DNA from: an uncultured bacterium
GTDB lineage: Bacteria; Patescibacteriota; Minisyncoccia; UBA6257; 2-01-FULL-56-20
DNA length: 64,000 bases
Direction of reading: 5' to 3'
Assembly (NCBI GenBank): GCA_963844965.1
Contig: CAWJQC010000004.1
Span: forward strand, 128,001-192,000
In this document: positions 5,059 through 7,907 of the stretch, in pieces
Layout of the letters: the number at the start of each line of letters is the position of its first letter
Position numbering within the stretch: position 1 is the stretch's first letter
Program-made: the position numbers and the translations under genes
Notes under the pieces: generated by a model
Told to the model about the DNA's origin: nothing
Seen by the model: only the letters and a program-made list of their open reading frames with translations
Database searches by the model: none

Positions 5059-5093
5059 TTAGAAAGTAGAAAGTAGAAAGTAGAAAGTAGAAT
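5059..5093. repeat. tandem octamer (GTAGAAAG)x4 directly abutting the rplM start codon
   Basis: ttagaaagtagaaagtagaaagtagaaagtagaa; in transcript sense CTACTTTC repeats end 3 nt before the GTG start; no SD. Confidence 0.8.
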
Positions 5094-5132
5094 TATATGT
5101 TTTATTCTATTTTCTAAATTCTAAATCCTTTA

Positions 5133-5486
5133 TTATACGAATTCCACGGCTGCCAGCCGCGAACCGTCCCTTTTTCTGGACTTTTGAAGTTTGATGATCC
5201 TGAGATATCCGCCGGCGCGCGCAGCGTAACGCGGACCCAGTTCTTCATAAATTTTATTGGCGATCCTCGGATTGTGCACGCGTTTCAAGATAAGGCGGCG
5301 TGCCGCCAAATTCTGTTTTTTCGCGATGGTGACGAGGCGCTCCACAACCGGCCTGATGGCCTTAGCTCTCGCCTCGGTAGTTTCAATTCGTCCCACCTTT
5401 ACCAAATCGTTCGCGAGATTGCGTAAAAAAGCACGCCTCTGTCCCCTTAACCTGTGAAATTTTTTCCCTTCTTTTAAATGTCTCAT
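5133..5486 (-). CDS. rplQ: 50S ribosomal protein L17
   Basis: 117 aa MRHLKEGKKFHRLRGQRRAFLRNLANDLV...; typical L17. Confidence 0.9.
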   Translation of the reverse strand: MRHLKEGKKFHRLRGQRRAFLRNLANDLVKVGRIETTEARAKAIRPVVERLVTIAKKQNLAARRLILKRVHNPRIANKIYEELGPRYAARAGGYLRIIKLQKSRKRDGSRLAAVEFV

Positions 5487-5490
5487 AAAC

Positions 5491-5524
5491 TAGAATCTAG
5501 AAAGTAGAATCTAGAAAGTAGAAG
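5491..5524. repeat. GTAGAAAG-type repeats interleaved with TCTAGAAT, upstream of the rplQ start
   Basis: tagaatctagaaagtagaatctagaaagtagaag begins 5 nt after the rplQ start codon (transcript sense upstream). Confidence 0.75.
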
Positions 5525-5569
5525 TCTTAGATTCTATTTTCTATTTTCCATTTTCTAGTTACGGCGCTA

Positions 5570-6337
5570 TTATGATTTCTTCGTTCTGCCGCGCTTCTTC
5601 GGCGCAGCTGCTTCGGCCTCAACTTTCGGCGCTGCGAATTCCTGGACGTTCAACGCCGAGACCTTCTCAAAATGATCTTTCAGGGCATTAGCCGATTTAT
5701 GCAAAGCCGACGACGGACTGATGGTTCCGTCGGTCTCTATCTCAACGCGCAAGCGGTTATAGTCGGTCCTGTCACCGACGCGCATGTTCTCAATTGAATA
5801 ATTGACCCTCTGCACCGGCGTGAAGATGGCGTCAATGGCTATGGTGCCGATGGAAAGCCGGCCTTCCTTCCGCGCCTCGACCGGCGAGTATCCGAGGCCG
5901 CGCTCCACCTTAACCTCCATATCAAGTTCAGCGTCTTTCGCTGTCAAGGTGGCTAGATAACTGTCCGGATTTACAAGTTCAACTTCCGAGCTCATTTTTA
6001 TCTCGCTGGCAGTCACGCCTTTCTCACCCTTTACCTTCAAGGTCAACACTTGTGGTTCATCGGTATGCATGCGGAATCTCAGTTTTTTGAAGTTCAGGCT
6101 TAGCTCTACCAGGTCCTCTTTGACTCCCGGCAAAGTTGAGAACTCATGGGGCGCGTTTTTGATCTTCAGTTCCGTAACGGCCGCGCCCGGCAGAGACGAG
6201 AGAAGCGCCCTTCGGAGCGCGTTGCCGACCGTAAGCCCGTAACCGGCGTATAATCCTTCAATCTCAAAAACGCCGTTTTTCGCGTCCTCGGAAACGGTTT
6301 TTATGGTAACGGTGGAACTTAAGTGAGAATGCTCCAT
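5570..6337 (-). CDS. rpoA: DNA-directed RNA polymerase alpha subunit, N-terminal domain only, with a Lys/Ala-rich tail
   Basis: 255 aa; alpha-NTD motifs (VFEIEGLYAGYGLTVGNALRRALLSS, GVTELKIK); ends AAPKVEAEAAAPKKRGRTKKS with no alpha-CTD; sits between rpsD and rplQ. Confidence 0.85.
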   Translation of the reverse strand: MEHSHLSSTVTIKTVSEDAKNGVFEIEGLYAGYGLTVGNALRRALLSSLPGAAVTELKIKNAPHEFSTLPGVKEDLVELSLNFKKLRFRMHTDEPQVLTLKVKGEKGVTASEIKMSSEVELVNPDSYLATLTAKDAELDMEVKVERGLGYSPVEARKEGRLSIGTIAIDAIFTPVQRVNYSIENMRVGDRTDYNRLRVEIETDGTISPSSALHKSANALKDHFEKVSALNVQEFAAPKVEAEAAAPKKRGRTKKS

Positions 6338-6353
6338 TGTTTTTTAATTATTG

Positions 6354-6959
6354 TTATTTGCTGAATGATTCGACCAATAAGTTGACATCAAACGGGGAGG
6401 TAGCCTCCGGAGGCGAAAGCACGCGCCCCTCCAATTTCTCTCTGTCCAAATGAAGCCACGCGGGCGGCTCGTATTTCTTGAGAATTTCGGCTCTCTTCTT
6501 TACCGCGTCAACGTCGCCCTGCGCAGTTATAACATCGCCAGCCTTGACCGAATACCCCGGCGATCTCACCCTGCGCTTGTTAACAAAAATATGGCCGTGG
6601 ACTATAAGCTGGCGCGCCGCTCCGCGCGAAGAAGCAAACCCAACCCTGTAAACCACGTTATCAAGCCGGCTCTCTAAAAATTCCACGATTTTCGCAGCCG
6701 AAGATCCTTTCGCTCTGACCGCCATCGCGAATATTCGCCTCAAATTACGCTCGTCCAAGCCGTAGCTCAACTTGAATTTCTTTTTTTCTTTGAGCTGCAA
6801 CCCGAATTCCGACAAACTCCTTCTTTGACGCTGCGGACCGTGAACGCCCGGCCGGTATGGCTTTCTCACAAAAGCACATTTTGGCGTGGAACAACGCTCG
6901 CCCTTCAGATTAAGGCGCTCGCCGACCGCTCTTTCTTTTTTTTCTTTGGGACCGATCAT
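6354..6959 (-). CDS. rpsD: 30S ribosomal protein S4
   Basis: 201 aa; S4 N-terminal zinc-ribbon-like region (CSTPKCAFVRKPYRPGVHG) and S4 domain (RLDNVVYRVGFASSRGAARQLIVHGHIFVNKRRV). Confidence 0.9.
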   Translation of the reverse strand: MIGPKEKKERAVGERLNLKGERCSTPKCAFVRKPYRPGVHGPQRQRRSLSEFGLQLKEKKKFKLSYGLDERNLRRIFAMAVRAKGSSAAKIVEFLESRLDNVVYRVGFASSRGAARQLIVHGHIFVNKRRVRSPGYSVKAGDVITAQGDVDAVKKRAEILKKYEPPAWLHLDREKLEGRVLSPPEATSPFDVNLLVESFSK

Positions 6960-6964
6960 AAACG

Positions 6965-6997
6965 TAAGTGTAAAGTTAAAAGTGTAAAGTGTAAAGT
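6965..6997. repeat. tandem octamer (GTGTAAAG/GTTAAAAG)x4 directly upstream of the rpsD start
   Basis: taagtgtaaagttaaaagtgtaaagtgtaaag; in transcript sense CTTTACAC repeats end ~8 nt before the ATG. Confidence 0.75.
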
Positions 6998-7029
6998 TTT
7001 TTGGCCATTTCCCATGTCGCTTTTCACAT

Positions 7030-7485
7030 TTATACTCGCCTCACTTTCGGCGGCCGGGGGCCGTTGTGCGGAATCGGCGTGACATCTTTTATGGAAAGGA
7101 CATCAAATCCCTGATTGATGAGAGACCTGATGGCGGAGTCACGACCGCCGCCTATCCCCTTCACGATTATCTCAACCTTGTTCGGACCGGTGTTCTTAAG
7201 CTTCTCCGCGATAACGGCAACAACTTTGGAAGAGGCGAAAGGTGTCGCTTTTTTCGGACCGGAAAAACCCAGGGCGCCCGCGGATGACCAGGCGAGCACG
7301 TCGCCCCGCGTATCCGTCACTGTCACGACCGTGTTGTTGTAAGACGCGTTAATGTAGACGCGGCCTTCTTCTGTTTTCTTGGATTTCTTGGCTGTCTGCG
7401 CGGCCTGCGGCGCTTGAGCCGCCGGGCTTTCTTTCCCGGTCTTAACTTCTTCAGCTGTTTGTTCTTTTATTTTTTTCTTACCCAT
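7030..7485 (-). CDS. rpsK: 30S ribosomal protein S11 with a Lys/Ala-rich N-terminal extension
   Basis: GRVYINASYNNTVVTVTDTRGDVLAWSSAGALGFSGPKKATPFA...GIGGGRDSAIRSL. Confidence 0.9.
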   Translation of the reverse strand: MGKKKIKEQTAEEVKTGKESPAAQAPQAAQTAKKSKKTEEGRVYINASYNNTVVTVTDTRGDVLAWSSAGALGFSGPKKATPFASSKVVAVIAEKLKNTGPNKVEIIVKGIGGGRDSAIRSLINQGFDVLSIKDVTPIPHNGPRPPKVRRV

Positions 7486-7487
7486 GT

Positions 7488-7871
7488 TTACTTCAATTCA
7501 ACTTTCCTCTTACCGCTGCCGGCGGTTCTCCGAACGTTTCCGCGGACGGTCCGCGAATTCGTGCGCGTCCGCTGTCCTCTTGAGGGCAGCCGCCGCAAGT
7601 GGCGCGAACCGCGATACGTCTTCAAGTCTTTTAACCTTTGGATATTTCTTTTTATAAGCTGGCGGAGTTCGCCTTCTATCGCGAAATTTTTTTCAACGAT
7701 ATTTTGGACGCGCGCAATCTCTTCGTTCGTGAGCGCGTTCGCCCTTTTATTCATGTCAACTTTGGCCGAACCCAAAATTTTCCGGCTCGCCGGCACGCCT
7801 ATGCCGTAAATATAAGTCAGCGCTATCTCAATTCTTTTATTATCTGGAATGTTAACGCCGAGAATGCGCAT
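7488..7871 (-). CDS. rpsM: 30S ribosomal protein S13
   Basis: MRILGVNIPDNKRIEIALTYIYGIG...KTYRGSRH. Confidence 0.9.
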   Translation of the reverse strand: MRILGVNIPDNKRIEIALTYIYGIGVPASRKILGSAKVDMNKRANALTNEEIARVQNIVEKNFAIEGELRQLIKRNIQRLKDLKTYRGSRHLRRLPSRGQRTRTNSRTVRGNVRRTAGSGKRKVELK

Positions 7872-7873
7872 GC

Positions 7874-7907
7874 GTAGAAAGTAGAAAGTAGAAAGTAGAA
7901 AGTAGAA
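7874..7907. repeat. tandem octamer (GTAGAAAG)x4 directly abutting the rpsM start codon
   Basis: gtagaaagtagaaagtagaaagtagaaagtagaa begins 3 nt after the start codon (transcript sense immediately upstream). Confidence 0.8.

Follow-up and report, generated by a model that had tools for sequence, protein, structure and literature searches.

What are the short tandem repeats that end just before the start codons of four ribosomal-protein genes (rplM, rplQ, rpsD and rpsM) of an uncultured bacterium? The genes belong to a translation-apparatus operon located in a 64,000-nt stretch of contig CAWJQC010000004.1 (hereafter the window, whose own coordinates are used below). RpoA places the window in the Paceibacteria, which belong to the Patescibacteria or candidate phyla radiation (CPR), near Liptonbacteria. 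An initial annotation described the repeats as octamer arrays and proposed that they act as a translational enhancer or an autoregulatory operator specific to this operon. The interpretation that we favour, with moderate confidence, is that the arrays are the arms of dispersed, slippage-generated heptad palindromes, co-transcribed as intercistronic hairpins and compatible with stop-start coupling. The host operon, in which Pfam confirmed S13, S11, S4, RpoA, L17, L13, S9 and L36 on the minus strand, is the following:

4213..8377, minus strand: operon infA-rpmJ-rpsM-rpsK-rpsD-rpoA-rplQ-rplM-rpsI (open reading frames, Pfam, conserved synteny in relatives)

All four arrays were recovered by Tandem Repeats Finder (TRF) where they had been reported, with a period of 7 nt and not 8:

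5060-5092, minus strand: array before rplM, period 7, unit TAGAAAG, 4.7 copies, 100% match
5487-5523, minus strand: array before rplQ, period 14, two alternating heptamers, 95% match
6966-6997, minus strand: array before rpsD, period 7, unit AAGTGTA, 4.6 copies, 84% match
7874-7907, minus strand: array before rpsM, period 7, unit GTAGAAA, 4.9 copies, 100% match

The repeat unit is a GTAGAAA or GTGTAAA heptamer present in 4.6-4.9 copies. The octamer reading was rejected, since TRF and the lag analysis both give 7 nt; GTAGAAAG is one heptamer followed by the first base of the next copy, and the three to four copies first counted per array become nearly five. The start codons of rplM (GTG), rplQ, rpsD and rpsM are 2-9 nt from the array ends, confirming that the arrays abut the starts of genes devoid of Shine-Dalgarno sequences. 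The arrays were also correctly distinguished from CRISPR, which consists of 24-48 nt repeats with unique spacers, whereas the 7-nt units are contiguous and have no spacers.

The arrays are far beyond chance. At no more than 3 mismatches, GTAGAAAGTAGAAAG has 17 matches compared to 1.6 expected, a count reached in none of 100 shuffles. Self-similarity of at least 18/21 over the 64 kb was found only at lag 7 (six segments), at lag 14 (four segments) and in one coding segment at lag 9, compared to no segment in the shuffled 64 kb. An independent short-read contig, L205 (the contigs used for comparison are designated by L numbers), matches positions 5067-7903 with one mismatch in 2837 nt and no gaps. 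It was found by an exact-protein look-up of RpoA and breaks off inside two near-identical arrays; the same look-ups of RpsM and L36 for other strains returned neither on record. It should also be emphasized that short-read assembly breaks inside these repeats and that gene callers are misled by them, extending starts through the arrays.

Three of the four arrays are the 3′ arm of an imperfect palindrome of about 80 nt. Its 5′ arm is the AT-rich block whose presence upstream of three sites had been noted at the outset. The block is indeed shared, but it does not constitute a motif of its own, since it corresponds to the array in reverse-complement, degenerate form. Both arms are runs of 7-nt units that complement each other, and in the operon mRNA they are predicted to pair as a bulged, roughly 25-bp hairpin. 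The structured spacers and the remaining array are as follows:

7872..7954, minus strand: rpmJ/rpsM element; 5′ arm 7918-7950 (UAGAAnn units), loop 7909-7917, 3′ arm 7876-7908
5056..5132, minus strand: rplQ/rplM element; 5′ arm 5104-5129, loop 5094-5103, 3′ arm 5068-5093
5487..5569, minus strand: rpoA/rplQ element; 5′ arm 5532-5563, 3′ arm 5484-5516
6966..6997, minus strand: rpsK/rpsD spacer array, (CUUUACA) x4.6 in mRNA sense, direct only, no complementary arm
8069..8158, minus strand: infA/rpmJ hairpin of a non-heptameric family with CGAAT/ATTCG sub-repeats; -33.8 kcal/mol, z = -6.2

The 3′ arm of the rpmJ/rpsM element reads (CUACUUU) x4.9 in mRNA sense, and its predicted fold reaches -23.0 kcal/mol in sense (z = -7.2) and -26.7 kcal/mol in antisense. 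The rplQ/rplM element is a near-copy of it (-16.6 kcal/mol in sense, z = -4.0), whose tandem array extends to 5060, 4 nt short of the rplM GTG start. The rpoA/rplQ element (-22.8 kcal/mol in sense, z = -3.8) has a 3′ arm in which CUACUUU units alternate with CUAGAUU units, and the rplQ AUG is located within the base of the stem. The antisense folds of the three heptamer hairpins are each 2-4 kcal/mol more stable than the sense ones, and the rpsK/rpsD array has no significant fold (z = -0.3). A homologue of the infA/rpmJ hairpin occupies this junction in L001 as well, and related elements occur in L002, L016, L018, L020 and L202. Its CGAAT(A)/(T)ATTCG family, with a period of about 9-11, was also found at 10196-10256 (minus strand), upstream of a 570-aa gene, and is shared not only with these contigs but also with L009.

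The comparison of copies argues for pairing of the two arms. In the TAGAA family, the unit of both arms consists of a conserved 5-nt TAGAA core and two variable, mostly unpaired bases. The consensus fold of 10 copies contains five invariant UAGAA:UUCUA helices separated by internal loops of 1-2 nt, and at two predicted pairs both bases have changed while the pairing is maintained. Likewise, one unit of the GTGTCAG/CTGACAC family is compensated on both arms (GCGUCA:UGACGC).

Could these spacers simply carry promoters or terminators? This was rejected, since promoter matches within them do not exceed 9/12, which is the chance level, and the terminator scan, which looked for a GC-rich stem followed by a U tract, flagged none of them. 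A perfect promoter is found at the head of the operon:

8438..8467, minus strand: sigma-70-type consensus promoter TTGACA-18-TATAAT, 12/12 matches, upstream of infA

With a promoter 5′ of infA, none in the spacers and no terminator, the spacers fall inside a single predicted transcription unit; in L201, a canonical GC-rich terminator follows rpsI. The Rfam search of the spacers gave no match at gathering score, including to the alpha-operon ribosome binding site, the L13 leader and the L17 downstream element, and at E <= 1 only sub-threshold matches to a miRNA hairpin model. A role of the heptads as a three-frame stop insulator (through UAG, UAA or UGA) was also rejected, as the density of stop triplets is 0.077 compared to 0.075 after shuffling.

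The lack of Shine-Dalgarno sequences before rplM, rplQ, rpsD and rpsM, and their presence before the plus-strand open reading frames at 3818, 19762 and 53896, were both confirmed. However, this lack is not peculiar to these genes, since about 38 of the 48 candidate genes of the window are devoid of one: the scarcity of Shine-Dalgarno sequences is genome-wide and not a property of ribosomal-protein genes. CUUUCU(A), present at 7874-7907, corresponds to the 3′-terminal bases of a Bacillus-type 16S rRNA, so that the UAGAAAG-like units of the 5′ arm (7918-7950) could pair with such an rRNA tail; a usable 16S rRNA 3′ end was not found among the collected loci.

How widespread and how stable are these elements? 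They were searched for in 423 spacers of the infA-rplM cluster from 67 Patescibacteria contigs and the window. The median operon spacer across relatives is 18 nt. Spacers of at least 45 nt number 110, of which 35 are strongly periodic, with lag 7 as the best lag in 28 of the 35. Typically, the stop codon is followed by about 4 nt, a heptamer run, a loop, the complementary heptamer run and then about 8 nt leading to the start codon. The medians are 4 nt between stop and stem and 8.5 nt between stem and start, and both distances are at most 12 nt in 26 of 30 elements. The units themselves are unrelated among spacers and genomes (CCTGACA, AGACATC, TTCTCAC, GATTCCT, AAAAATC, CAGTCAG, AATTTTC), and at least five unrelated heptamer families coexist within the one operon of L002.

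The distribution among relatives reveals a rapid turnover. In L003-L006, L008 and L010-L012, which are at a similar distance, the spacers measure 2-50 nt and arrays are absent; relatives devoid of arrays include some with 76-79% RpoA identity. The initial annotation would have been undermined by orthologous 5′ untranslated regions lacking the arrays entirely, and this is partly the case: some relatives have none, others have unrelated heptamers at these junctions. In L201/L206 (RpoA 86% identical), the nearest of the relatives represented by a long contig, TAGAA hairpins occupy five operon junctions. The rpoA/rplQ element of the window is 94.9% identical to the infA/rpmJ element of L201, compared to only 73-80% for flanking genes, which indicates relocation or exchange of the element. 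The rpsK/rpsD array of the window is conserved orthologously in L201. In this relative, a repeat unit also includes the downstream start codon, 'aattctatttGTG' (3280-3295, 3758-3773, 5838-5853), and the genes that follow such elements begin with GTG or TTG, not ATG.

The diversity of the units bears on a reading of the heptads as DNA iterons recognized by a protein. The omega repressor of inc18 plasmids, a ribbon-helix-helix protein, recognizes 7-bp units whether they are direct or inverted. The 5-bp core with two variable bases on both arms of TAGAA-family elements would suit such a protein, as would the convergent runs of 4-5 heptads, which resemble an omega-type operator geometry. However, at least five unrelated heptads coexist in a single 3-kb operon, in a genome measuring about 1 Mb, and would each need their own protein, the sites are internal to the operon and without a promoter consensus, a loop of 9-20 bp separates the arms, and copies occur within coding sequence. 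The operator geometry is thus present but accompanied by no promoter and by too many heptads (the cognate protein was not searched for), and we consider this reading most improbable.

The perfection of several arrays (100% match) indicates recent slippage and brings to mind a contingency locus, in which changes in copy number of the start-proximal array would tune or switch the downstream gene. Repeats of 7 bp upstream of the Haemophilus hmw genes modulate expression in this way, and heptamer repeats are known to affect expression elsewhere. Against such a role, the genes concerned are essential and constitutively needed, and independent assemblies of one population are identical: no copy-number polymorphism was found in the two pairs available, L205 and the window (the single mismatch mentioned above) and L208 and L207 (100% identical over 5768 nt). 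Phase variation is very unlikely, as are DNA iterons.

Do the hairpins have a polarity that would reveal their function? The purine-richer half comes first in 28 of 33 heptad spacers (p = 7e-5), so that the pyrimidine-rich half adjoins the start codon. This bias reflects the type of palindrome and not an insertion orientation, since such a palindrome reads purine-arm-first on both strands, and its use as evidence of orientation was rejected. Among our measures, orientation matters to only two, namely how regular the start-proximal arm is and how far sense and antisense differ in stability. The start-proximal arm is more regularly periodic than the other one (21 vs 9, p = 0.002) and better conserved (32 nt identical between the window and L201). 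Predicted sense folds are less stable than antisense ones for 19 of the 27 spacers, with a mean difference of 5 kcal/mol (p = 0.05). This weaker sense fold fits a general G depletion of the sense strand of spacers (G makes up only 6.7% of short spacers). Judging from GC skew, it may also fit a loss of palindromes that depends on their orientation and affects the lagging-strand template.

These measures bear directly on a role in mRNA stability. The hairpins would then act like repetitive extragenic palindromic (REP) sequences and bacterial interspersed mosaic elements (BIMEs), or like Correia elements, as barriers to 3′-5′ exonucleases or as RNase III or RNase Y sites that set the stability of each segment (for example, the ribosomal-protein genes compared to rpoA). 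Significant hairpins are located exactly between the cistrons of a highly expressed operon, in which the elements are enriched, and the complementarity of the arms is kept across many unrelated families. Internal loops can modulate RNase III cleavage, and the periodic internal loops of the hairpins may resemble such features. However, the sense hairpins are AU-rich, bulged and weaker than their antisense counterparts, the opposite of what is expected under selection for stable RNA structure in the sense strand. Furthermore, their positions are not conserved, many relatives are devoid of elements and some arrays are only direct. A role in mRNA stability hence appears unlikely.

A marked concentration in one operon characterizes the distribution of the elements. 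Within the 68 contigs, 26 of 423 intergenic regions of the operon carry elements compared to one of 332 elsewhere (Fisher p = 4e-6), and on the three best-annotated contigs, elements occupy 15 of 24 operon junctions and 5 of 69 junctions elsewhere (p = 1e-7). Elements are enriched about 20-fold in the infA-rpsI operon. In eight element-rich genomes, the gaps flanking the operon are structured but never heptad-periodic. The claim that the arrays are specific to the translation-apparatus operon holds as a strong concentration but not as exclusivity, since elements are also present before ftsW, hsp20 and dnaG and in coding sequence. In the window, four further heptamer features were found:

19642..19666, minus strand: dnaG leader array, (CCAAUUU) x3.6 by TRF, direct, no complementary arm
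56009..56079, minus strand: lepA insertion, inverted heptamer arrays by TRF, AATTTYC/GAAAATT family, in frame
61835..61869, no strand assigned: solo TAGAA-family arm by TRF, between convergent genes, overlapping the end of an FtsQ-like gene
44823..44846, no strand assigned: heptamer array (TGTTACA) x3.4 by TRF, adjoining a tRNA-like remnant

About 11 nt separate the end of the dnaG array from the ATG at 19625; DnaG was confirmed by Pfam. The lepA insertion (stretch 55998-56082) adds about 21 residues in a loop of the G domain, according to the alignment with solved LepA structures, and its arrays are homologous to elements of ribosomal-protein spacers in L014, L017, L018 and L024. A direct AATTTTC array also lies inside a class-I tRNA-synthetase gene of L206 (18470-18504). 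The related array that had been noticed near 61840-61870 does exist, at 61835-61869, but it does not precede any start codon; it shares 93% identity with the 5′ arm of one of the L201 elements and shows no significant fold. In other contigs, the element of the window separates an amidohydrolase gene from ftsW and ends 5 nt short of the ATG (metagenome contig L167), a TAGAA hairpin lies between prsW and hsp20 (L206) and a GTGTCAG/CTGACAC hairpin follows hsp20 (L206), a family also found at the rpmJ/rpsM junction of L002.

Arrays of (CTTTCTA) in three or more copies were found in more than 120 metagenome contigs (L081-L200), with GC contents ranging from 28% to 71%, and are often bordered by variant ACTTTYN heptamers. 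They were rejected as a universal start-codon signal (14 vs 16 of 127 arrays in the 120 listed contigs, without association with start codons or orientation). Near-perfect heptamer hairpins are present in a few of these contigs (L094, -45 kcal/mol; L099, -38 kcal/mol), indicating that heptad palindromes are not confined to CPR bacteria.

What do these results say about the enhancer or operator first proposed? Under this explanation, the C/U-rich array would be a dedicated enhancer or standby site bound by S1 or by a cold-shock-type protein with an oligonucleotide-binding (OB) fold and a footprint of about 7 nt, or an operator common to all cistrons, by which one ribosomal protein would autoregulate each of them; either way, the 5′ arm would be an anti-enhancer making initiation depend on upstream translation. 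Several observations agree with it: the closeness of the arrays to starts without Shine-Dalgarno sequences, the enrichment in the operon, the more perfect periodicity and better conservation of the start-proximal arm, the pyrimidine-rich half next to most start codons and the inclusion of the start codon in the L201 unit. The A/U-rich composition (U 40%, A 33%, C 17%, G 10%) also fits an S1 enhancer or standby site, and an analogous proposal was made for the TAACTGA heptamers of Beggiatoaceae (PMC4679880). Nevertheless, close relatives express the same genes from short array-free spacers, the units are very diverse, the purine-rich arm adjoins the start codon in about one sixth of the spacers, and the same families are found in contexts unrelated to translation and in coding sequence. 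In addition, the array is predicted to be paired, whereas a standby or S1 site would be single-stranded, the metagenome arrays have no preference for start codons or orientation, and Rfam yielded no leader match. Dispersed heptad palindromes are thus more likely than an enhancer dedicated to S1 or an operator for ribosomal proteins; operon enrichment and the regularity and conservation of the start-proximal arm nonetheless keep the enhancer or operator alive as an unlikely explanation.

Less likely again, and best regarded as doubtful, is a dedicated intercistronic control common to a whole lineage of CPR bacteria devoid of Shine-Dalgarno sequences. In this scheme, a protein whose OB fold is of the S1 or cold-shock type and whose footprint is 7 nt would read the start-proximal array, the complementary arm would gate it, and no ribosomal-protein cistron would be initiated unless the one before it is being translated. 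Such a module would be portable and would carry its own start codon in L201. If it were true, it would give a function to the long-unexplained heptanucleotide repeats of bacteria.

The origin of the elements as dispersed heptad palindromes accounts for their position in another way. They would arise and spread at the DNA level by slippage of heptamers combined with intrastrand template switching or local copying, which would yield the complementary arm, and would be co-transcribed with the operon. They would persist where the folded hairpin holds the stop and start codons close to each other, a proximity by which termination-reinitiation coupling could survive without Shine-Dalgarno sequences. 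Selection would mainly filter the sequence adjacent to the start codon, retaining a G-poor, U/C/A-rich and meltable arm. The adjacency to start codons would then result from an element filling a very short ancestral spacer and would not be the sign of a dedicated enhancer.

Several points weigh against such an origin. A purely selfish or neutral origin does not predict enrichment in one operon, nor the co-occurrence there of several unrelated families that are all missing from the flanking gaps. The greater regularity and conservation of the start-proximal arm hint that the sequence of this arm matters in itself. Neither a target-site duplication nor a dedicated transposase was found, the one IS200-like gene of the window having unrelated flanks. 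The rpsD site and the dnaG array are direct repeats without a hairpin, and all the hairpins are predicted structures.

Heptanucleotide repeats have precedents, among them the short tandemly repeated repetitive (STRR) sequences that Mazel reportedly described in cyanobacteria in 1990. Structures between cistrons that couple translation are also well known, from the coat-replicase pair of phage MS2 and from ribosomal-protein operons of E. coli. As in these cases, the predicted stem described here lies just upstream of the downstream start, its 5′ partner is at the end of the upstream cistron, and a terminating ribosome would be expected to open it. However, the classical structures sequester a Shine-Dalgarno sequence and are conserved and unique, whereas those found here are repetitive, rapidly replaced and dispensable in relatives.

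The closest described repeats are the TAACTGA heptamers of Beggiatoaceae, some Cyanobacteria and Bacteroidetes (MacGregor 2015, PMC4679880). They too are tandem 7-nt units (2-6 copies, or more) that lie within a few nucleotides of starts without Shine-Dalgarno sequences, on their upstream side, in ribosomal-protein operons and occasionally in open reading frames, and binding of S1, cold-shock proteins (Csp) or CsrA has been proposed for them (PMC4679880). The resemblance thus includes the tandem heptamer and its proximity to starts but not the use of a single unit genome-wide. TAACTGA is one unit in 169 direct sets compared to one indirect set, whereas at least four unit sequences are present in our window, with an inverted array at three of the four sites; more generally, many units per genome are found here, usually with an inverted array in a spacer-filling hairpin and in a CPR phylum. 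As cited in PMC4679880, Mrazek 2007 found heptanucleotides to be the commonest long simple repeats of prokaryotes and ascribed them to polymerase slippage. Long simple repeats and STRR sequences (PMC4692102) share with our elements the dominance of period 7 among non-triplet tandem repeats, an intergenic location and a proposed origin by slippage, but they are plain tandem arrays for which neither a stop-to-start hairpin nor enrichment in an operon is described. No report linking heptamer repeats to Patescibacteria or Parcubacteria was found in the literature.

REP/BIME sequences, enterobacterial repetitive intergenic consensus (ERIC) sequences, Correia elements or neisserial miniature insertion sequences (NEMIS) and Rickettsia palindromic elements (PMC3184786, PMC2229807) are, like ours, short non-coding imperfect palindromes in multiple copies, generally considered to be co-transcribed with flanking genes and patchily distributed among relatives. 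Rickettsia palindromic elements also insert in frame into genes, as in lepA and the tRNA-synthetase gene here. In-frame palindromes in genes and intergenic ones thus coexist in both, although the sequences are unrelated. Compared to all these families, our elements differ by their tandem-heptamer arms, AU-rich and not GC-rich, and by their strong concentration in one operon. They lack the conserved head of REP sequences and an associated REP-associated tyrosine transposase (RAYT): they are about 80 nt long, compared to 20-40 nt for REP sequences, and heptad-periodic, and the sole Y1 transposase gene of the window has unrelated flanks. As for miniature inverted-repeat transposable elements (MITEs), the whole element is here an inverted repeat whose copies occupy different junctions, and the copy ends compared showed no terminal inverted repeat accompanied by a target-site duplication.

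The window carries other repeats and candidate mobile elements. The Y1 transposase gene, IS200-like and solitary, lies downstream of rpoD (15296-15733, minus strand); its flanks (15083-15295 and 15734-15997) are strongly structured but unrelated in sequence to the heptamer elements, and a link between the two was rejected. An element of about 130 nt (53654-53790, minus strand) is bounded by terminal inverted repeats of 12 bp that match perfectly, CCCGTTAGAAGC...GCTTCTAACGGG, and the start codon (ATG) at which it exactly ends is that of a DivIC-like gene. Its family ends at ribosomal-protein ATGs in L013, L014 and L015, and a CCCTCAC...GTGAGGG family of L202 likewise ends at an ATG. Two serine-recombinase genes (30976-32394 and 43135-44739) each adjoin a tRNA-Gly gene or tRNA-like 3′ halves (32315-32355, 44651-44815), and an island of low GC content (39%) extends over about 38-44 kb (38000-44000). 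Together, the recombinases and the island look like integrated mobile elements. Finally, an exact 300-nt direct repeat (23545-23844 and 24424-24723, 879 nt apart) is contained in a 1174-aa open reading frame (22146-25670).

Some observations concern the genes themselves. RpoA (5570-6337, minus strand) has only 255 aa, with the N-terminal dimerisation and insert domains, a Lys-rich tail and no alpha C-terminal domain. Its best ~120 homologues all have 252-276 aa and the same two Pfam domains, indicating that a short RpoA is a property of the clade. Frameshifts were found, compared to the intact genes of relatives, in rplM (4709-5055, two) and rpsI (4213-4684, one); dnaG (17898-19625) has two and lepA (54437-56343) is split into two open reading frames. 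Some of them adjoin short homopolymers, pointing to assembly indels rather than biology, and these frameshifts in essential genes are probably indels of a long-read assembly. Unlike these places, the segment 5067-7903 is backed by the short-read contig. Directly upstream of infA, two conserved genes of unknown function (8483-11396, minus strand) are found clade-wide (L002, L017, L201, L202); they encode proteins of about 380 aa and 550 aa, the larger with a weak GlxA beta-barrel match. Further upstream is alaS and, beyond it, dnaG-rpoD.

Although heptanucleotide repeats such as the cyanobacterial STRR and TAACTGA sequences were recognized decades ago, they have no agreed function. In the present case, period 7 appears in a defined architecture, a hairpin extending from stop to start codon, in the infA-rpsI operon of streamlined CPR genomes in which Shine-Dalgarno sequences are rare. 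This architecture leads to testable predictions, on translational coupling and on mutagenesis by slippage and template switching in highly transcribed DNA, and bears on how tiny genomes tolerate invasion by repeats, even in essential genes.

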